Shown in pieces: positions 1-63,124 of a stretch of DNA of 64,000 nucleotides (its first letter is position 1; each line of letters begins with the position of its first letter). The notes beneath the pieces were generated by a model. That model made no database searches. It was not told the DNA's origin and saw only the letters and a program-made list of their open reading frames with translations. This DNA comes from a virus. Taxonomy: Duplodnaviria; Heunggongvirae; Uroviricota; Caudoviricetes. The stretch is taken from the IMG/VR virus record IMGVR_UViG_3300033233_000007. One strand, given 5' to 3'. The position numbers were made by a program, and so were the translations under genes.

Positions 1-494
1 GTGAGACTCTCATCGGGCTTGCGCGCCTTCGTCCTTCGCCTCTTCATGACATCCTCCGTCGCTTTTTGCGTGCTTGATCGCGATCCATTTCTTGCCGAGC
101 GCGAGCATTTGAAAGTCGATGTAGAGCGCCGCCGGCATCGTGATCGTCACGGGTTTGGCGTTGACGACCGTTCGACCTTCCCCTATCCACACCCACTCAG
201 CGGACCTGGGCGCCTTCGTCTTTCGCTTCGTCTTTCGCTTCATCTTCCTCCGTTTCTCTAATCTCTTCTTCCCACGTCGCGCTCTGACTGATGCAGGAGT
301 CGCACGGCTCCCATCGCAGGACGACGCCATAGTTGCCGACGTGCTGGCCGTCCCTGTACAACCGGCACGGCTGCTCGGGGCCCCACACGACATCGCTCTT
401 TTTGTGCTCGTCGAAGCACGGGCTGTCGGCCCGCTCCCATAGCGTGTGATGGTTGCAGAAAAACCAGACCCAGATGCTCTTGACGGTGGACATT

Positions 495-4717: not shown

Positions 4718-7700
4718 TACGTGGTCTCCGAAAAAGCCGACTTCAAAGCGGCATGGTAGATGCGAGCAAATTTTCTGACGGCGGACTCGAAGACGGATAG
4801 TTGCGCGGGTTCGCGAAGGACCATGTTCGGGTGAATCGCACCCACGACGAGCGCGCCGGCGTCGGTCTTAAACGTGGAGCCGTTGGCTTTGACGATGCTG
4901 CCTTTGCCGCCCACGGCCTCCCACGCCCGTCTGCCCAGCGCGAGAATCAACGAGGGCTTGATCTCGTCGATCTCCTTCTTGAGCCACGGGCACTCGGGCG
5001 TCTTTTCCTCACCGGCGTAGGGCCGGCACTTGAACGCATTCGAGATGACCAGGTGTTCCCTGTTGATTTTGAGATGCTCGAGCAGAGCCATAATCAGTTC
5101 GCCCGACTCTCCGAGGAGGGGCCTTCCGCGCCGATCCTCCACGCGGCCGGGGTCCTGGCCGACGACCATAACGTTCCACTTCCCGACCTCGACGGGCACG
5201 GGGGCGCGACAGAATTTCCTGCGGTCGCATTGGGTGCAGAGCTTCGTCTCTTCGGCGAGCATGGGCACGCGCTTGGCCGGCCGGATTTGAGGAAGCACGC
5301 GGTCGGCGCCCGTCGCGGCGTCGATAAGGCCGCCGGGCAGCTTTCTGAGCTTGAGCCGATCTTTGAACTCGTAGTAATTCTGGTAAGGCCCGTGCGACGA
5401 GCGCTCATCGAAGATGCCTTTAGCGAAGGCCGCCGTGACGCCGGGGATGTCGAGCAGGGCTCGGCGGACGCCGCCGTTTTGCGGCGTCCAGAAAATGTCG
5501 GAGTGGTTGAAGCTGAAGGGCAGAACCTCAACGCCCATTTCCTCCATCTCGTCGAGAAGCTGGCGTTTCATTTCATCGCCCTTCTTGTTCTCCTTGTCTT
5601 CGGCGACGTTAAGCGCGGAGGCGTAAAGGTCGAGCGTGCGATGGCGCTTAAGCCAGCCGATCTGATAAGCCAAGAGCGAGTAGGCCGTGGCGTGGCTTTT
5701 GTTGAACGAATAACGCCCCATCCCCTCAAGCTGATCCCACAGCGCCGCGCCCTCTTCCGCCGTCAGCGTCTTTTGCCGCAGACATCCTTCGACGAACTTG
5801 CTCTTCCATGCAGCGAACGATTGCGCGCCCGTGAGCTTCTTGGCAATGGATTTTCGGACGCCGTCGGCCTCCGTCCACGAGAAGCCGGCGACGCGCGTGC
5901 ACAGCATCATCACGTCTTCCTGGAAGACAATCAACCCGGCAGGGTCCTCGTGATAGCGGTTGGCGAGGCCCGCGGGGTCCGTCTGGCCGAGCCCGCCGGG
6001 ACGGAAGGCCGCATTCGCGAACACCGTGTCTTCGAACTTCGCAGGCTTGAGCATCATGAGAAACGCCTTCATCCCCGACGTGGAGAATTGCGGCGTACCT
6101 GCGGTGCGGCCTTCGGAGAAGTCCGTATAGACGGCGGCATCATCGAGCGGAATCATCGCCAGCGCGCTCTCGAAAGGGGCGAGGATGTCCAGCGTACTGT
6201 TGCCCAGAAGGTCGATCTTCAGATGGCCGATGTCGTCGGCGTCCTGAAGGTCCCAGCAAAGCAGGCCGTTGACCATGTAGCCGCGACCGAGCCCATTTAT
6301 GGGAGAACTGGAAATTACGAATCCACCGGCGTGCGCCCCGGTCTGACGGACTTTCCCGACGAGGCGGTTGGCAAATTCGGCCGCGAGCGTACTGAGCTTT
6401 CGAAGCTCGGCCACGACGGGATGGCCGTCGAGCGTCTTTCGTTCGTCTTCGGCCCAATCCGTTTCCTCATCAGGGTCGTGAAGCTTCACATTTTTCTCAA
6501 GGTCCTTGAGCACGCCGTAAGTGCGGGCCGCGTCGCGGGCGGCTTGGCGAACGCCGTACTTCGAGTACGTCGCGATCTGGGCCACGCGCTCGGCGCCGAA
6601 GACCTCGCTGAGAATTTCGGGAACGCGTCGGCGCACGGCCACAGGCAGATCGAGGTCGACGTCAGGGAGAGAGCCGACTCGTCCTGGGGCGTAGAACCTT
6701 TCGAATATGAGGTCGTGCCTGATGGGATCGAGAATCGAAATGCCCAGAAGGTGCGCCACGAGGCAGCCGCCGACGGAGCCGCGGGGGCCCACGAGCGCCC
6801 CACGCTTCTTGAACTCGTCGACGACTTTCTGCACGAGCAGCAGATACTCCGCGAGGCCGGCTTCGATGAGCGTCTTAAGCTCGTACTCCGCACGGTCGTA
6901 GTATTTCGGTTTGTCGGGGACATTGAGCTTCGAGAGCGCGGCGTCGACGCGTTCGATGAGCACCGTATTAGGATCATCGCAGACCTTGGCGATGGGCAGA
7001 CGGTCGTGCGGGAGGTCCGTGATCTCGCAGCGGTCGGCGATCTCCGCTGTCGTGGCGATGGCGCGAACGGCTTCGTCTTCGGTCAGGCCCGCCTTTTGCA
7101 GGTGCTCGTAGATTTCGCCCGGCGTCATGAGGTAGCTCATCTTCGTCGAGAACTTCCACGCCTTGGGGTCGTCGATGGCCTTCAGATCGGCCACGGCCAA
7201 GAGCGCGTCGTGGAAGGGCTTGTCGGTGGCGCACGCGAAGTGGCAGTCAACGCTCGCCGAAATGGGCCGGTTGAAGTGATCGGCCAACTGGACGACGATG
7301 CGGTTGAGCTTGATCTGCTCGTCCCAGTCGTCGACGGGCATGACCTCGAAATAGAAATCATCGCCGTAGGCCTTGACGAAGGGCTCAAGGTCGTCGATGG
7401 CTTTCTCCGATTTCCAAAACGGTGAACTGTAGCAGCCGGAAAGGACGACGAGACCCGAGCCAGCAGCTTCAAGCACCTTCGCCAGCGGCACGGTCAGGCG
7501 CTTGAGGCGCTTCTTTTCGATGACGCCGGAGCCGAGGATAGAGGAAAGGGCGGCGAAGCCCTTCAAGTCGCGGCAGAGGACCGTGAGGTGGAAAATTTTA
7601 TCGCCGTCATAGGCCGTCGTAACGTAAAGCTCGCACCCCAAAATCGGCTTGATGCCGGTCTTGCGGCAGGAGGCGATGAAGCGGGGGATGCCGCTGATCG

Positions 7701-29658: not shown

Positions 29659-29695
29659 TGCTTGACTCTTTGCTTACAGATTGTACACTGTCGTT

Positions 29696-30898
29696 GTGAA
29701 AGTTCGCTACCGTTTTCGCTTTTACCCATCCGACGAACAGAAATTCGAGCTTGCCCGCGTCTTCGGCGCCTGCCGGTACATCTACAACTGGGCGCTTCGG
29801 ATGCGCACGGACGCCTACTATAAGGACGGCGTCTCCGTCGGGTACTGCGAATCCAGCACCCGGCTCACCGCGCTCAAACGCGATCCCGAACACGCCTGGC
29901 TCAACAAGACTTCCTGCGTTCCCACGCAACAGGCGCTTCGCCACCTCCAGACGGCGTTCGTCAACTTCTTCGAGAAGCGTAGCGCATATCCGAAGTTCAA
30001 GCGTAAGGACGGTGAGCAGTCTGCCGAGTACACAAGGTCCGCGTCCAAGTGGGACGCTAAGAACCGTAACCTCGAACTCTCTGGCCTCGGAAGACTCAAG
30101 GTCCGCTGGTCCCGCAACTTCAAAACTCCTCCGACCACCATCACCGTAACCAAGGACACGGCGGAACGCTACTTCGTCACGCTCTGTCTGGACGAGACGG
30201 TTTTGAAGCTCGAACCCGTTCACAAAGCCGTCGGCATTGACCTCGGCATCATGGCTCTCGCCACCCTTTCCACAGGCGAGAAAATCGAGAATCCGCGGCA
30301 CCTGATCCGTGCCCAAGCCGCGCTCACCCACGCCCAGCGCGATCTGTCCCGTAAGTCCAAAGGATCGAACCGGCGTGCCGCTCAAAAGCTCAAGGTCGCC
30401 AAGCTTCACGCCCACGTCGCCGACGCCAGAGTCGACTACCTGCATAAAATCACCACTGATCTCGTGCGCCGTTTCGACGTGATCGCCGTCGAGAACTTGA
30501 ATGTCCGCGGCATGGTTAAGAACCACAACCTTGCCCGCGCTTTGAGCGACGCGGCCCTCGGCGAGTTCCTGTCGATGATCCGGTACAAGTGCGAATGGTA
30601 CGGACGCGAGCTTCGGACGGTGGACCGTTTCTACCCGTCCACGAAGCGATGCTTCGACTGCGGACACGTTCTGGAGGAACTTGATCTCGGTTGCCGCGTC
30701 TGGACGTGTCCCGAGTGCGGCAAGGAGCATGATCGCGATGTGAACGCCGCGAAGAATATTCTGGCGGCCGGACAGGCCGTGACTGCGCGTGGAGGGAAGG
30801 TAAGACCTAAGCGGGACAGTCACCGCAAGGGCGCATCCCTGAGAAGCGCGAACCATCTTGAAGCTACGCATATAGTTTCAGGAATCCCCGGACTTTAG
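29696..30898 (+). CDS. tnpB: TnpB (IS200/IS605-family OrfB, RuvC-like + zinc finger)
   Basis: N-terminal RYRFYPSDEQ...YNWAL and a C-terminal CFDCGH...WTCPECGKEHDRDVNAAKNI. Confidence 0.8.
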   Translation: MKVRYRFRFYPSDEQKFELARVFGACRYIYNWALRMRTDAYYKDGVSVGYCESSTRLTALKRDPEHAWLNKTSCVPTQQALRHLQTAFVNFFEKRSAYPKFKRKDGEQSAEYTRSASKWDAKNRNLELSGLGRLKVRWSRNFKTPPTTITVTKDTAERYFVTLCLDETVLKLEPVHKAVGIDLGIMALATLSTGEKIENPRHLIRAQAALTHAQRDLSRKSKGSNRRAAQKLKVAKLHAHVADARVDYLHKITTDLVRRFDVIAVENLNVRGMVKNHNLARALSDAALGEFLSMIRYKCEWYGRELRTVDRFYPSTKRCFDCGHVLEELDLGCRVWTCPECGKEHDRDVNAAKNILAAGQAVTARGGKVRPKRDSHRKGASLRSANHLEATHIVSGIPGL

Positions 30899-30909
30899 TC
30901 CGGGGAGGA
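30879..30909 (+). mobile_element. IS605-type right-end hairpin (CCCCGGACTTTAGTCCGGGG) plus GAGGATGTCAA at the 3' end of tnpB; a likely omega-RNA scaffold end
   Basis: Perfect palindrome at the tnpB stop. The same end recurs at 51600-51725. Confidence 0.55.
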
Positions 30910-31034
30910 TGTCAAGCGACGCGCCGCTTCCACCTTCGGCCAGAGCAGGCGTGCGGCCGCACGGACGGCATCAGCGCGGGACACGCAGAGGTCGGCGGCG
31001 TACGCGTCAAGGATCGCCAGCGTCTTTTCGTCGG

Positions 31035-43626: not shown

Positions 43627-44772
43627 ATGCCCGACATCAGCCCCCACATCACGGTCAACAAGGACGACGTTCATAGCTTCGTCATCGATTCGATCCTGCT
43701 TGAGAATGTACGCACGGAAAAGCTCGTCTTCGCTGCGCACTGGAACGCGTCCATGAAAAACGGCGGCGACAAATTCCATCAAGCGTGTGAAATTGCGCGC
43801 AAGATCGGAACTCCGCGTTTCGTCGGGACGCACGGCAATTACGCGGACGGGCTCGTCCTGCGCGACCAGTCCGTCGTGAAGCTCTGGATCGGAAAGAAGC
43901 TCGACGTTGAAGTTTGGGCCAAGACGCAGGAAGATGCTACGAAAGAGGTACAGGCAATCCGAAAGATTGTCGAGCCCTATCTCATCACCCCTGAAAACGA
44001 GTCCGGGATCAGCGTGACCTTCTGGAACTCGAACACGAAGGGAGATGTCAAGCAGAACGAGCGCATCATCGCGTGTCCTTCATGGCAGGAAATCCGCGAG
44101 AACTACGGCTCTTCCGTCCAACCGGACATCGAGTCTCTGGTGGCAATGAAAAAGCCGTGGGAGGCCGGGAAGATCATTTTCTGGTCTGGGCCGCCGGGCA
44201 GCGGGAAAACTTTTGGAATTCGTTCTCTAATTCGTGAGTGGCACGGCGTTGTTGAACCGAACTACATCATGGACCCGGAGACGTTCTTCAGCGACGCGCA
44301 GTATATGAGCGAGGCCGTGATGACGACGAGCAATAAGTTTGACGAGGATGGGGATAGCAAGCCGTCGACGGCCGGCAAACTCTTCATCATCGAGGACATG
44401 CCCGATCTCATCCTGACGAAAACTCGCCTGACCCGTTGCGCCGAAATGGCCCGACTCCTGAACCTCTCCGACGGCTTTATCGGCCAGGGTTTTAACGCCA
44501 TCTTCCTCCTGACGACGAACGAGGACGTCCACGACGTCGACCCTGCGTTTCTCCGCGATGGCCGCATCCTTCAGCAGACAGCGTTCACGAAGTTCAACAT
44601 GTCGGCAGCGAAGGCGTGGCTCGGCAATCGCGGGATCGCCGCTGACCGCGCCGACGCCGCCATCTGCGGAGAGATGACGCTGGCCGAGCTTTACGCGGTG
44701 CTGCGGGGCAAGAGGCCCAAGTCCCATGTGAAAGACCGCAAGGTCGGCTTTGCCGTGGAGAAATCGTCATGA
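43627..44772 (+). CDS. AAA+ ATPase
   Basis: Walker A GPPGSGKT, Walker B LFIIEDMPD and sensor LLTTNE. Confidence 0.75.
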   Translation: MPDISPHITVNKDDVHSFVIDSILLENVRTEKLVFAAHWNASMKNGGDKFHQACEIARKIGTPRFVGTHGNYADGLVLRDQSVVKLWIGKKLDVEVWAKTQEDATKEVQAIRKIVEPYLITPENESGISVTFWNSNTKGDVKQNERIIACPSWQEIRENYGSSVQPDIESLVAMKKPWEAGKIIFWSGPPGSGKTFGIRSLIREWHGVVEPNYIMDPETFFSDAQYMSEAVMTTSNKFDEDGDSKPSTAGKLFIIEDMPDLILTKTRLTRCAEMARLLNLSDGFIGQGFNAIFLLTTNEDVHDVDPAFLRDGRILQQTAFTKFNMSAAKAWLGNRGIAADRADAAICGEMTLAELYAVLRGKRPKSHVKDRKVGFAVEKSS

Positions 44773-44782
44773 ACCGCTTGGA

Positions 44783-45916
44783 CTAAAGCCCCGCGGCTTG
44801 TTTCTGAACATGAGGACTCGAAACCATAGGCTCCATGACGAGAGCCCTCTCCGGGCAGGCTTGCCTCCTGGAGATCGTCTGCGCGGCATTGAAGTCCGCG
44901 GCCAGACGATAGCCGCAGACGGCGCACGTAAAGTGCGCCCCGCTTCGAGAAGATTTGTCCACGACGCCACACTTCGAGCACTCACGGCTCGTGTTCTTGG
45001 CGGCCACGGACACGACTTCGACACCGGCCAAAGCCGCCTTGTAACGGATCATCGTCTCAAGCTCGGAAAAGGCCCATGCGTTGATCCTCCGATTCCACGT
45101 CTTGCTGAACCGCTTGAGGCGATCCCGAATGCCCTTGAGGTCCTCCAGTTTGATGACGGCCCTCTTTTTAGTCGCCTCGTCAACGATGGCCTTGCTGATC
45201 CGATGGTTCTCGTTCCGCATCCAACGATGCTCCCTTCCCGACAGCCGTTTCAAGAGGCGCCTAGCGCTTCTTGTGCCTATGGACTGGAGCTTCGCCCTGC
45301 GGGACGCGAACCTCTCACGGACGTGCATGACCTTTCGACCGGAATGGAATTTCCCCGCGGACGTGACGGCAATGTTATAGACGCCCCTATCGACGCCGAT
45401 GGCGCAGATGGGATGCGACCGCTGGCCTGGATCGTCTTCGACGACGATATGGATGTACCACTTGCGATCTCCATAGACAAGCTTGGCGGCGGTGGGTCTC
45501 TTCCCGCGAAGATTGTCGCGCTGGTACGTTCCGAGGACGAGAGGAACGTGGACGCGGCCGTTGACCGTCGTCAGGGATACCGCCTCTTCGTTCTCACGGT
45601 AGGTGAAGATTCGCTCATCGTAATCGACGCTCGTGGGCCTGAACTTCTTGACGGTCCTGTCCTTGCGTTTCACGGCTTTGATCGCCCATGCGACGCGGGC
45701 GATGGCGCGAATGGCGAGATTAGCGGAAAGGTTGAACTGTTTGCGGATATCGTGGTAGACGAGGTGCTGAAGTTTGACCTTGTTCGAAGTTTTCTCACGG
45801 ACAGCGACCTCAAGGATGACGTCGCACGCGGCGGCAAACTTCGTGAGCGTGTCCTTGAGGGCGTCGGAGACAGTGGGGGCGGGGTCCATTTTGCAGATGA
45901 TTGTTCGCTGTTGCAT
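44783..45916 (-). CDS. tnpB: TnpB (IS1341/IS605-family OrfB), second copy, distinct from 29696..30898
   Basis: N-terminal MQQRTIICKMDPAPT and a C-terminal CSKCG...CAVCGYRLAADFNAAQTI. Confidence 0.75.
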   Translation of the reverse strand: MQQRTIICKMDPAPTVSDALKDTLTKFAAACDVILEVAVREKTSNKVKLQHLVYHDIRKQFNLSANLAIRAIARVAWAIKAVKRKDRTVKKFRPTSVDYDERIFTYRENEEAVSLTTVNGRVHVPLVLGTYQRDNLRGKRPTAAKLVYGDRKWYIHIVVEDDPGQRSHPICAIGVDRGVYNIAVTSAGKFHSGRKVMHVRERFASRRAKLQSIGTRSARRLLKRLSGREHRWMRNENHRISKAIVDEATKKRAVIKLEDLKGIRDRLKRFSKTWNRRINAWAFSELETMIRYKAALAGVEVVSVAAKNTSRECSKCGVVDKSSRSGAHFTCAVCGYRLAADFNAAQTISRRQACPERALVMEPMVSSPHVQKQAAGL

Positions 45917-46243
45917 GACGAATATAATATCACATACGTCTTGAATGTCAAGGAGGGCGACGCTTCTTCCGTTCGGGCTGAAGCCCGGCGGCATCCGCGT
46001 CGCAAGAATTGGTGAAGTTTGTCAGACTCGTTCTGAGCCCATGGGGCGTCGAACTGGCGGGCGCTCTGTGCCTTCTGGCCGCGGGCTTCGAATTCATGGG
46101 ATCGTGGGCTTCGCCAGATCAGTTCACCCGCGCTATGAACTTGGCGGGCTATGGATCGATGCTAATTCTGACCGCATACGTTGAGCGGGACCTGCTCAAA
46201 GGTGTAAACTCCCGTTCGTGCGAAACCGAAAAAGGAGAGGCAT

Positions 46244-51109: not shown

Positions 51110-51445
51110 GTGAGCATGAGTTCGCCTACGGCGTCCACGAGCACGTGGCCTTTCGAGTACCACGCGCGCACGTCGGACTGCGCGGGTACAGCCACGTCCT
51201 TTGACGCCTTCAGAGGATGGTGCTGCCTGTCGTGTCATGAGCCCACTTGCGTCCCGGCCGGTACGTCGAGCACTCGAGGCTACCACTCACGCTTTGTCGC
51301 AGGGCCGATTCAGAAGGAAGAAGAGCCGCCGCATCCGCCGCCGTGGGTCCGCGAGCACGCTACGCCGTACCGTCCGGCGCTTCACGCGATCAAGATCGTC
51401 AGGCGCCCGGAGTTCCATGCCAGGAGCAACCCGAGATGCCGTTGA
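51110..51445 (+). CDS. hypothetical Cys-rich protein
   Basis: ORF. Confidence 0.3.
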   Translation: MSMSSPTASTSTWPFEYHARTSDCAGTATSFDAFRGWCCLSCHEPTCVPAGTSSTRGYHSRFVAGPIQKEEEPPHPPPWVREHATPYRPALHAIKIVRRPEFHARSNPRCR

Positions 51446-51624
51446 AAGAGATCGGCGAGTACAGGGACTTCAGGCGCCCGAGCGTTACGACGCTTGAGCC
51501 GCCTGCGGGTCCTGCATGCCCGCGATGTGAGATGCCGACGCATCTTGATTCCGAAAAGACGTGGACGGTACACACGGCCTGGTACTGCCCGATGTGCTGT
51601 CGCTGGTGGGAGGAGACGAGTTGA
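51436..51624 (+). CDS. hypothetical zinc-ribbon protein
   Basis: ORF with CPRC...CPMCC. Confidence 0.35.
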   Translation: MPLKEIGEYRDFRRPSVTTLEPPAGPACPRCEMPTHLDSEKTWTVHTAWYCPMCCRWWEETS

Positions 51625-51725
51625 CATCCTCTCCGGACTGAATTCCGGGGATTCCCGAAGCCATATGAACGACTTCAAGATGGTTCACGCTTCTCAGGGA
51701 CGCGCCTTTGCGGACACGGGTCCGC
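51600..51725 (-). mobile_element. orphan IS605-family right end (3' tnpB fragment + hairpin + GAGGATGTCAA), roughly 85% identical to the right end of tnpB-1
   Basis: The revcomp aligns with 30780-30909, ending with hairpin CCCCGGAATTCAGTCCGGAG then GAGGATGTCAAC. No intact tnpB is attached. Confidence 0.5.
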
Positions 51726-51958
51726 TCGGGTCTTACCGTCCCTCCACGCGCCTGAATTCCGGCGTGTCCCGCCGTACCGTGGAAGTCTTGGTTATCGACG
51801 TTCCAAAACGTGGAGGTTTTACGTTCCCGCATTCGGGAACAACTCCATGCCTCATTTTCAGAGAGCGCGCCCATGCTAATTGACGCGAGCTTCGAAGTCA
51901 ACGGGAACACCGCGATTCCTCTGCTGCCTGAAGGCGGCGGTTTCCTCACGGAGGGCCG

Positions 51959-52225
51959 ATGAGCGGCGTGAAGCTTAAGCCGGAGCATTACCGACTCGGT
52001 CGCGTGCTCAACGAAGGTCTTGTCGGTCTCGATCATTGGCGTTACGGCAGAGCCCTTTGGACGCGTGTCAAGACGCGTGGTCATGCCAAGCGGTGCGTCG
52101 TGTGCGCAAAGGACTTTCCGAAGAAGACGGTGATGTACTCGCCGGCGACGTACGGGCTCAACCGCTTTCATCGAATCTGCGAGCCGTGCATGGCGAAGAT
52201 CGTTTCCGGGGAGAAGCTGAAATGA
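51959..52225 (+). CDS. hypothetical zinc-finger protein
   Basis: ORF. Confidence 0.35.
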   Translation: MSGVKLKPEHYRLGRVLNEGLVGLDHWRYGRALWTRVKTRGHAKRCVVCAKDFPKKTVMYSPATYGLNRFHRICEPCMAKIVSGEKLK

Positions 52226-52542
52226 CCTGCCCCGAAGTCATGAACGCCGTAAGGGCGGCGGTCGCCCAAGACGAAGTCCATCTGTCGGAGCACGTCGTCG
52301 CTCATTTCGAAAACTGTGAGGCCTGCCGCATGGCCGTTGAAGAAACGATCGCCGACGAGACGGCCAACGTCAATCAGGCCAGACGCGCCCTCGACGAGGC
52401 CATGCCGGCGATCCACCAAGCCATCGATCACATCGCTCACGGCGTCATCGAGGGTACGGCGGTCGTGGAGGATCGCGACGAGGCCGTGAAGAACGCGAAG
52501 GCGTGGTTTGAGAAGAGGCGAGAAGAAAAGGGGGACCGATGA
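52222..52542 (+). CDS. hypothetical protein with a ZAS-type HxxxCxxC motif (anti-sigma-like)
   Basis: Motif HFENCEACR. ATGA coupling with the upstream ORF. Confidence 0.35.
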   Translation: MTCPEVMNAVRAAVAQDEVHLSEHVVAHFENCEACRMAVEETIADETANVNQARRALDEAMPAIHQAIDHIAHGVIEGTAVVEDRDEAVKNAKAWFEKRREEKGDR

Positions 52543-61651: not shown

Positions 61652-61779
61652 ATGGACCGCAACGAATCGCTTTACAACTGGGCTCTTCGGGAGCCGATGG
61701 CGCTTTTGGTGCCGTCGTGGCAAGGCGGCGTAAACTACCGTCGCCTGAAGGCAATGGTTTCTGCGCGGAAGACTTTATG
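61651..61779 (+). CDS. hypothetical mini-protein
   Basis: ORF. Confidence 0.25.
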
Positions 61780-61923
61780 AGATGGATCGGCGATCAATGG
61801 CGCACCCTCCCGCGCCCGCGCCTGATGTGGGCGATTGCGAACGTCGCTGCCATCGCGCTCGCGTTTCCCTTGATAGTGTTCATGGTCGTCTGTGAGCGTC
61901 TGATTCCGGCGAGGAAACCGTAA
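61776..61923 (+). CDS. hypothetical TM mini-protein
   Basis: ORF with an ATGA overlap. Confidence 0.3.
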
Positions 61924-62474: not shown

Positions 62475-63124
62475 GCGTCGCCAGCCGCAGGAAATGGCTC
62501 ATCGCCGCCGTTCGTCGCAACGACGTCGCGGCGATCGTCCAGCGCTCGCGTGAGCCCGATTCGCCGGTCGTACTAACGCTAAACGCCGCCGAAATTCTTC
62601 TCAAACAGTTCGCGTGCGCGATGCCCGAGCTTTCGGACCTCAAGACCGAAGCCACAGCTTGGCTTCTGGAGCGCAACTATTTTACCCCCGCGAACGAGTA
62701 CGAAATGCACAAGAGATCGGAGTCAGCGAGGATGTCAATAGCGATCACGGTCGAGCGCGAAAAGCGCGGTTACAAAAACTTCCTGCCGTTTGAAGCGCTC
62801 GACGTCGCTGATGCCGTGCGCCGTCTCGCCAAAGCGTGGGAGACGTCCGGTCGAGGCCCTACCCGCACGGACGAAGACGCCCTGAAGCCGATACCGATGG
62901 CGCGTGTAGGCGTGTACGGGATCGGCTATTCCGTGGAGGAGTTTCCCGAAGGGCCCATGGGCGTTCATGTCTCCGTATGTCGCGTCGATCAACGCAAGAT
63001 CGAGGGCGCCGAACTTACGGGGCTGAAGAACGAGATCGGTTCGGTGCTGGGCGGCGCCGTCACGGCGTACTCGATGCCGTCCGTGAATCCCGCCGTGACG
63101 CATCTTTTTGTTGAGCAAGCATAG
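62471..63124 (+). CDS. hypothetical protein
   Basis: ORF with an ATGA overlap. Confidence 0.4.
   Translation: MSVASRRKWLIAAVRRNDVAAIVQRSREPDSPVVLTLNAAEILLKQFACAMPELSDLKTEATAWLLERNYFTPANEYEMHKRSESARMSIAITVEREKRGYKNFLPFEALDVADAVRRLAKAWETSGRGPTRTDEDALKPIPMARVGVYGIGYSVEEFPEGPMGVHVSVCRVDQRKIEGAELTGLKNEIGSVLGGAVTAYSMPSVNPAVTHLFVEQA

Follow-up and report, generated by a model that had tools for sequence, protein, structure and literature searches.

The locus described here lies in a 64,000-nucleotide stretch of viral DNA, called the window throughout, with a G+C content of 60%. Its minus strand carries 28 tRNA genes between 34919 and 39446 (34.9-39.5 kb), which cover most amino acids, and its genes match phage DNA polymerase, helicase, primase and terminase families; the window is therefore a piece of a large phage genome. 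GenBank phages searched with the locus and with the 245-nt element gave no match. IMG/VR held no relative of the neighbouring SPFH protein and returned nothing for an exact degenerate right-end (RE) pattern, and the TnpB relatives that it contains reach an identity of only 35-39%.

Two tnpB genes are present in the window. The first, tnpB-1, encodes a full-length protein with the Pfam domains HTH_OrfB_IS605, OrfB_IS605 and Cas12f1-like TNB, in which the RuvC D/E/D motifs GIDLG, AVENL and HDRDVNAAKNI are visible. Residues 6-388 align to the TnpB of ISDra2 (PDB 8bf8/8exa/8h1j) with an E-value of 6e-68. The part of this locus that matches the miniature element described below is the 3' end of the gene together with a further 17 nt ending in GGAGGATGTCAA, and the 7.2 kb around tnpB-1 are also found, identical, in an independent Logan assembly. 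A promoter-like site (TTGACT-16-TACACT, 29662-29689) precedes tnpB-1 at the same relative position as in the miniature element described below, and its -35 hexamer starts 4 nt after the end of a HAD-like gene (29658). Upstream of tnpB-1, an HMM and a pairwise alignment to the left end (LE) of the miniature element found no LE, and neither an LE hairpin nor a TAM is seen. With the promoter kept and the LE and TAM missing, tnpB-1 therefore looks fixed in the phage, with its RE and omega RNA intact. The second gene, tnpB-2 (44783-45994, minus strand; 403 aa), is 26% identical to TnpB-1 and belongs to another lineage; the covariance models R1 and R2 gave no match to a right end or RNA for it. The segment that carries it (44758-46032, about 1275 nt) is missing from the sister phage L062, where 1764/1794 joins window 44757/46033, and is an insertion polymorphism between the two phages.

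The third feature has no nuclease gene. When 51501-51900 was compared with the window by blastn, a single non-self match was returned, in which the minus strand of 51621-51774 aligns to 30765-30915 with 80.5% identity over 154 nt (E 4.5e-36). The first-pass annotation had placed an orphan IS605-type right end at 51600-51725, about 85% identical to the end of tnpB-1. The similarity is real; within 51621-51725 it measures 82% (86/105). An IS605-family right end with an omega-RNA-like scaffold does stand here without a tnpB ORF, as had been proposed, and the translated remnant next to it corresponds to no more than the C-terminal 44 residues of TnpB-1 (29 identities, E 9e-12). The proposal of a distinct copy with its own guide flank also holds: at about 80% identity, tnpB-1 is no closer to it than elements from other metagenomes, and the sequences beyond the two right ends differ (GCGACGCGCCGCTTCC at tnpB-1 versus CTCGTCTCCTCCCACC here), with 29% identity past GTCAA. 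The word orphan has to be given up, for an LE, a TAM, an IS promoter and a dead tnpB start sit 100-340 nt upstream on the same strand. The interval was also drawn too short, as strong homology reaches 51777, decayed homology about 51851, and the element itself 51958 (Table 1). The terminal GAGGATGTCAA is shared by both right ends, at 51631-51621 (minus) and 30905-30915 (plus). A third exact occurrence at 62728 (plus) was dismissed; it has no other similarity to either right end and was judged by eye to be coding DNA.

Table 1. Positions in the window of the miniature element, its parts and the tnpB-1 locus
Feature	Positions	Strand	Remarks
Whole miniature IS	51621..51958	-	338 nt; PATE-like, internally deleted ISDra2-type tnpB-only IS
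TAM TCAT	51959..51962	-	Plus strand reads ATGA, start codon of the 88-aa gene 51959..52225
Left end	51905..51958	-	GGAAA, hairpin CCGCCGCC-TTCA-GGCAGCAG, AGGAA
Promoter-like site TTGACT-17-TAGCAT	51873..51901	-	Placed where the IS has its tnpB promoter
tnpB start remnant CTCTCTGAAAATGAGGCA	51848..51865	-	From alignment to relatives' ...G-TGAA(A/G).T.AG.TA... start regions
Decayed tnpB codon remnant	51778..51851	-	Codons for W-T-C-P-E-C-G...H-D-R-D-x-N-A-A-K-N-I-L
Omega-RNA scaffold and right end	51621..51777	-	157 nt; helices H1-H7, GAC/GUC partners
Putative 16-nt guide CTCGTCTCCTCCCACC	51605..51620	-	Antisense to last codons (W-W-E-E-T-S) of the Zn-ribbon gene 51436..51624
tnpB-1, candidate trans partner	29696..30898	+	400 aa, ISDra2-like TnpB
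tnpB-1 omega-RNA scaffold, RE and guide flank GCGACGCGCCGCTTCC	30762..30931	+	From R2 match and alignment

Anatomy and insertion site of the miniature element

Read along the minus strand, the element runs TCAT, CGGCCCTCCGTGA-GGAAA-CCGCCGCC-TTCA-GGCAGCAG-AGGAA, TTGACT-17-TAGCAT and CTCTCTGAAAATGAGG. Since LE, TAM, promoter and dead start lie on one strand, we take it to be a complete miniature (PATE-like) element with an internal deletion of about 1 kb. Its anatomy, family membership and insertion site are, with high confidence, those given by the sequence. An HMM of the full IS, made from four relatives, matches the mini-element at positions 2-77 (LE) and 1112-1337 (3' end), with nothing between. 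The deletion junction falls at about 51848-51855, the 3' nhmmer match starts at 51851, and the former tnpB start codon has gone from GTG to CTG.

The left end was recognised through other genomes. An LE HMM built from relatives only (nhmmer) aligns to 51962->51905, from the TAM through the hairpin, with an E-value of 7.4e-5. The order in the relatives is TCAT, about 13 nt, GGAAACCCCCGCC-TTCA-GGCGGGGGAGGAA, a -35/-10 hexamer pair (identified by eye) and then the GTGAA... start of tnpB. TCAT stands directly 5' of the LE in six of them (L007, L008, L009, L010, L012 and L045). An LE was recognised in six relatives, each time immediately upstream of tnpB, and these six are therefore tnpB-only elements. 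According to an alignment read by eye, the hexamer pair occupies the same aligned position, with similar spacing, in L007, L008, L010 and L012. In the mini-element, the -35 and -10 hexamers score 9/12, and they form the sole sigma-70-like site in 51200-52300, where 0.1 would be expected. The LE hairpin (51940-51921) is degenerate, with 6/8 pairs, and with two mismatches among eight pairs mobility is probably impaired. The decayed remnant also holds a new perfect 7-bp hairpin, GTTCCCG-AATG-CGGGAAC (51840-51823, minus), which is missing from intact tnpB copies.

As PATEs and MITEs do, the element has both ends within 338 nt and no protein-coding gene; the multi-copy state is not seen in the 64-kb window, which contains a single mini copy. 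It shares with IS200/IS605 transposons a homologous RE, an LE hairpin and a TAM-adjacent insertion without target-site duplication. A 228-aa minus-strand ORF that spans the element (51485..52171) was considered as a gene and rejected, as it has no Pfam domain and the gene on the opposite strand is conserved in L062. Elsewhere in the window, an LE-like motif, TCATAAAGTCTTCCGCGCAGAAACCATTGCCTTCAGGCG (61742-61780, minus; nhmmer E 0.0014), sits in the 270-nt gap after a DNA-methyltransferase-like gene. Neither a promoter nor an RE follows it, and a decayed solo left end or chance could account for it.

The insertion site can be compared with that of a sister phage, L062/L063, which is syntenic with the window (SPFH protein 92% identical, flanking DNA about 85%). 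Homology between L062 and the window breaks at 51619/51620, the RE boundary, and restarts at about 52204. At the break L062 reads ...TGGTGGGAGGAAACGAA|ATGAGC... (the junction is also given as GAAACGAA|ATGAGC), an ATGA stop/start overlap, and on the minus strand its empty site is TCAT|TTCGTTTCC. This homologous site, TCAT plus TTCGTTTCCTCCCACC, agrees with the flank of the mini-element at 14/16 positions. In the window the element stands between ...GAGACGAG and ATGAGCGGC..., the latter being the start of the 88-aa gene, and no bases are duplicated at either junction. The junction sequences therefore indicate a simple insertion 3' of TCAT without duplication, which is typical for IS200/IS605 transposons (PMC10055086), at what was formerly the ATGA overlap between two small phage genes.

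The TAM of the clade, TCAT, has ATGA as its reverse complement, and the RE end, TCAA, has TTGA. With these complements, insertion at an ATGA overlap therefore left both codons in place (51621-51624 and 51946-51962), a stop (AGT TGA) for the upstream gene and the ATG of the downstream one. Within the LE end, GGAGG stands 5 nt upstream of the ATG at 51959, a place where the relatives have different sequence, and in 3/5 relatives an antisense ORF of 75-126 aa begins at the ATGA beside the LE. The IS right end is also one edge of a variable segment (window 51621-52203 versus L062 6184-8438). In the window this segment comprises the mini-IS and the 88-aa gene (0.58 kb); in L062 it spans 2.25 kb and contains a second Zn-ribbon paralogue, a gene with an RlaP domain and four small ORFs. 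Among 5.8 billion proteins the Zn-ribbon protein had only one relative, and therefore no further empty or occupied sites could be recovered; an IMG/VR pattern search for the conserved end of the Zn-ribbon gene returned nothing. Two small ORFs nearby gave no exact protein match either, probably owing to different starts picked by the gene caller.

The omega-RNA scaffold and its family

TnpB-1 has relatives in metagenomes at 57-79% identity, and their right ends define the RNA family. An alignment of eight copies extends from the C-P-E-C-G codons as far as an invariant ...GGAATCCCC-stem-GGGGAGGATGTCAA, and from the following base on the copies diverge, which fixes the transposon boundary; across the family, sequence conservation stops exactly at GTCAA. 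Within this block the mini-element reads GGAGAGG where the other aligned copies have GGGGAGG. Its terminal stem is CCCCGGAA-UUCA-GUCCGGAG, followed by AGGAUGUCAA, and the RE ends in GTCAA. The RNAalifold consensus of a MAFFT alignment has seven helices with 39 pairs in all, and compensatory changes occur in 14 of these pairs. A covariance-model search added 20 further matches, 13 of these at E <= 1e-4, and all but one of the 13 strong matches lie at the 3' end of a tnpB or directly beyond a matched tnpB. The contigs with strong matches include Chloroflexota, Bacillota, Myxococcales and cyanobacterial ones, among others. Over 26 distinct members, in an alignment fitted to the model, paired cells make up 93.8%, a share that falls to about 43% when the partners are slid, and 35/39 pairs show double changes. 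The family thus has what marks a TnpB omega RNA, a conserved secondary structure that overlaps the 3' end of tnpB and the RE and is supported by covariation.

The covariance model R2 was built without the mini-element sequence. Under this model the mini-element scores 125.1 bits (E 1.3e-28) over the full model length, and the tnpB-1 RNA 167.7 bits. Standard pairs are formed at 35/39 consensus positions in the mini-element versus 36-39 in its closest TnpB-linked relatives. Pairing is kept or gained in six of the ten pairs that differ from tnpB-1. The two breaks in the nine-pair terminal stem are C.A and A.G, and the C.A recurs in the TnpB-linked L013. Folded alone, the mini-element has no terminal stem in its MFE structure, and the guide pairs with GGAGAGGA instead; the fold z-score is -1.9, versus -4.4 for tnpB-1. 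The mini-element and all close family members have the GUC at -5..-3 and the GAC of AAGACC. Both motifs are invariant, so covariation speaks neither for nor against the pseudoknot pairing.

Among Rfam families, HgcC (RF00062) is the best match to both right ends (30829-30925 and 51608-51727). Membership was rejected, with 21.9 bits for the mini-element and 26.4 for tnpB-1 against a gathering threshold of 50, and the gathering-mode scan was empty. The Transposase-2 RNA (RF03015) gave a weak match to tnpB-1 and was likewise rejected on score. In one relative (L008), a short RE-like match (27.5 bits, E 2.7e-4) occurs at 5526-5614 (plus), downstream of tnpB at a distance of 1.3 kb. It comprises a CGCGGGACACGCGG hairpin, a GC-rich stem-loop and then GAGTGTCAA, with no LE detected nearby, and may represent a further end without a nuclease, from a related family.

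Decay, selection and possible action in trans

The mini-element joins two segments that have fared very differently. The coding-only remnant is 54-59% identical to TnpB-linked copies, with indels, whereas those copies are mutually 61-94% identical; its similarity to tnpB still stands above that of shuffled sequences (z 3.6, reached by 0.1% of shuffles). In the scaffold, the mini-element is 62-78% identical to the others, which are 61-89% identical among themselves. Where six TnpB-linked copies are invariant, the mini-element differs from them at 13/30 positions of the remnant versus 3/55 of the scaffold (Fisher p 4e-5), and leave-one-out controls on the TnpB-linked copies gave no such asymmetry. 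The contrast, which is supported statistically, points to selection on the RNA after the loss of tnpB: uniform neutral decay after that loss does not account for it, and purifying selection on the RNA does. Earlier selection in a mobile mini-element lineage, before entry into the phage, would account for it too. The first-pass annotation had set a relic against a guide-RNA gene acting in trans. The element is a deletion derivative, these alternatives are compatible, and the decay pattern favours continued selection on the RNA.

The best explanation, to which we give a probability of about 0.6, is a 338-nt non-autonomous mini-IS whose most likely function would be to supply a trans-acting omega RNA for use by TnpB-1. 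The source was a tnpB-only IS200/IS605 element of the ISDra2-TnpB clade, from which an internal deletion of about 1 kb took the nuclease gene. The derivative inserted 3' of TCAT at the ATGA overlap, keeping LE, promoter, scaffold and RE while the coding leftover decayed. From the LE promoter, a transcript may run through a leader of about 90 nt and the 157-nt scaffold into the adjacent phage sequence, with CUCGUCUCCUCCCACC as its guide. TnpB-1, whose gene lies at a distance of 21 kb on this phage genome, would bind and trim this RNA in trans. The complex would then cut TCAT-guide DNA, that is, the uninterrupted junction allele in a co-infecting or recombinant relative, and once the break was repaired from the occupied genome, the mini-element would be copied or retained, a form of trans-homing. 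For transcription, loading onto TnpB-1 and cleavage, we put the odds slightly under even. Against these steps, the scaffold and the RNA of tnpB-1 share only 78-80% identity, their cross-recognition by TnpB-1 being putative, and the mini-element RNA would be made in the direction opposite to a plus-strand operon.

The putative targets bear on the same steps. The only known empty allele, in L062, mismatches the guide at positions 1 and 6. For ISDra2, double mismatches within guide positions 1-12 abolish cleavage (PMC10097598), and so no cleavable natural target was found. Guide searches, which had been suggested at the outset, gave in the window and in IMG/VR the mini-element's own flank, one chance match, one lead and nothing more. 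Within the window, the mini-element guide has no second match, and the tnpB-1 guide none beyond chance. In IMG/VR, the TAM plus the tnpB-1 guide matched one contig (L065), taken as chance because it shares no other similarity with the window. The TAM plus the mini-element guide (two N allowed) matched L066 (IMGVR_UViG_3300038436_000007) at 394-413 (minus), TCAT plus GTCGTCTCCTCCCACC, at 15/16 positions. This match sits where a small protein ends in a ...WWEETT*/ATGA junction, on a viral contig that is otherwise dissimilar. We treat it as a lead, given that, by rough estimate, an 18-base pattern could yield a few chance matches in such a collection. The guide lies in a WWEET-stop motif, and this motif recurs at the ends of small phage proteins.

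Set against the trans-acting RNA is an inert relic, a dead deletion remnant whose scaffold owes its condition to constraint before the deletion or before phage entry, which we hold to be possible but rather doubtful. Mismatches in both terminal hairpins (LE 2/8, RE stem 2/9), the weak fold z-score of -1.9, the one copy in the window, the lack of a perfect target in the window and IMG/VR searches and the antisense location inside an operon would all be at home in a relic. What a relic would not readily show is a scaffold that deviates at just 5% of invariant positions beside a remnant decayed to 54-59% with indels, a contrast that uniform neutral decay since the deletion would not yield. The promoter hexamers, too, are still good at 9/12.

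Two further readings fare far worse. It could be argued that the outer bases were co-opted for phage gene expression: the RE complement TTGA would act as the Zn-ribbon stop, the LE complement GGAGGGCCG-ATG as a Shine-Dalgarno, and the minus RNA, if made, as an antisense regulator. The Zn-ribbon ORF, as read from the sequence, does end AGT TGA using RE bases; a GGAGG stands 5 nt upstream of the ATG at 51959, just where the mini-element leaves the LE consensus; and in L062 a Shine-Dalgarno-like GGGAGGAA lies within the upstream gene, from where the insertion displaced it. All this explains the outermost few bases and not a structured scaffold of 157 nt, and we judge the reading very improbable. 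That only an RE and its omega scaffold survive, with ordinary phage DNA upstream, is hardly credible and already contradicted. It was suggested by blastn against tnpB-1, which finds 51621-51774 alone, tnpB-1 offering no recognisable LE for comparison. The LE profile from other genomes nevertheless finds TCAT and an LE in that upstream DNA, and the promoter-like site and start-codon remnant lie at the positions predicted by the relatives' alignment. Homology to the sister is lost at the RE end, and the TAM falls on the ATGA with which the next gene begins.

If the RNA proposed in the trans-acting reading is made and used, a guide-RNA-only element can persist in a phage by borrowing TnpB from the same genome. 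RNA-guided trans-homing between phages would follow, and the modular view of IS605 would extend from bacterial chromosomes to viruses. A more specific version, in which a fixed LE-less TnpB armed with two guide RNAs serves as a trans-homing or exclusion nuclease against relatives with the uninterrupted junction, seems unlikely. Under it, the mini-element would spread among phage genomes without its own transposase or nuclease, and the ATGA/TTGA complements would let it settle in stop/start overlaps with both codons preserved. The locus offers a clean natural experiment, with an empty site in the sister phage and a border between decayed remnant and scaffold that would mark the functional start of the omega RNA. 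With the R2 model and TCAT as its inferred TAM, a compact family of ISDra2-like TnpB/omega-RNA systems can be delimited in metagenomes and several bacterial phyla, and this family is a candidate for genome-editing tests.

Comparison with known systems

Protein-less, PATE-like mini-elements of the IS200/IS605 type that bear an omega RNA have been described in Geobacillus stearothermophilus (Meers et al. 2023, PMC10055086). Like them, the phage element combines the LE and RE of a tnpB-bearing IS family with an omega scaffold at the RE and no ORF, is inserted beside a family-specific TAM and would need TnpB in trans. It differs in lying in a large phage genome rather than a bacterial chromosome, in being a single copy and in its imperfect terminal hairpins. 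It is, moreover, visibly derived from a tnpB element by internal deletion, because the start-codon and C-terminal coding remnants can still be recognised.

The omega RNA (reRNA) of ISDra2 from Deinococcus radiodurans likewise overlaps the 3' end of tnpB and takes the DNA flanking the RE as its guide (PMC10097598, PMC8612924). In both, the last stem has a UUUA-type tetraloop some 17-20 nt ahead of the guide, and a GUC at -5..-3 could pair with a GAC further upstream (PMC10097598). The TAM of ISDra2 is TTGAT, versus the inferred TCAT of the mini-element clade. In that clade an extra covarying 5' hairpin, H1, is conserved, whereas in ISDra2 the 5' region beyond -116 is dispensable for cleavage; the mini-element, unlike ISDra2, has no TnpB. 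HgcC (RF00062) shares the 3' motif ...CCCCG-N-UUUA-N-CGGGGAGGA(G/U)GUCA and an upstream hairpin, and the comparison suggests that HgcC is itself a TnpB omega RNA.

Among phages, the trans-homing of defunct homing-endonuclease elements in T4 (mobE / I-TevIII) offers an analogy, as there a nuclease-less element is spread between co-infecting phages by a nuclease encoded elsewhere (PMC2790892). That system is protein-guided and not RNA-guided, and the likeness would go no further than analogy. The mini-element is a well-delimited addition to a known class, the omega-RNA-bearing miniature IS605-family elements, and what distinguishes it within that class is its phage location, the natural empty site in a sister phage and an uneven decay that speaks for selection on its RNA.
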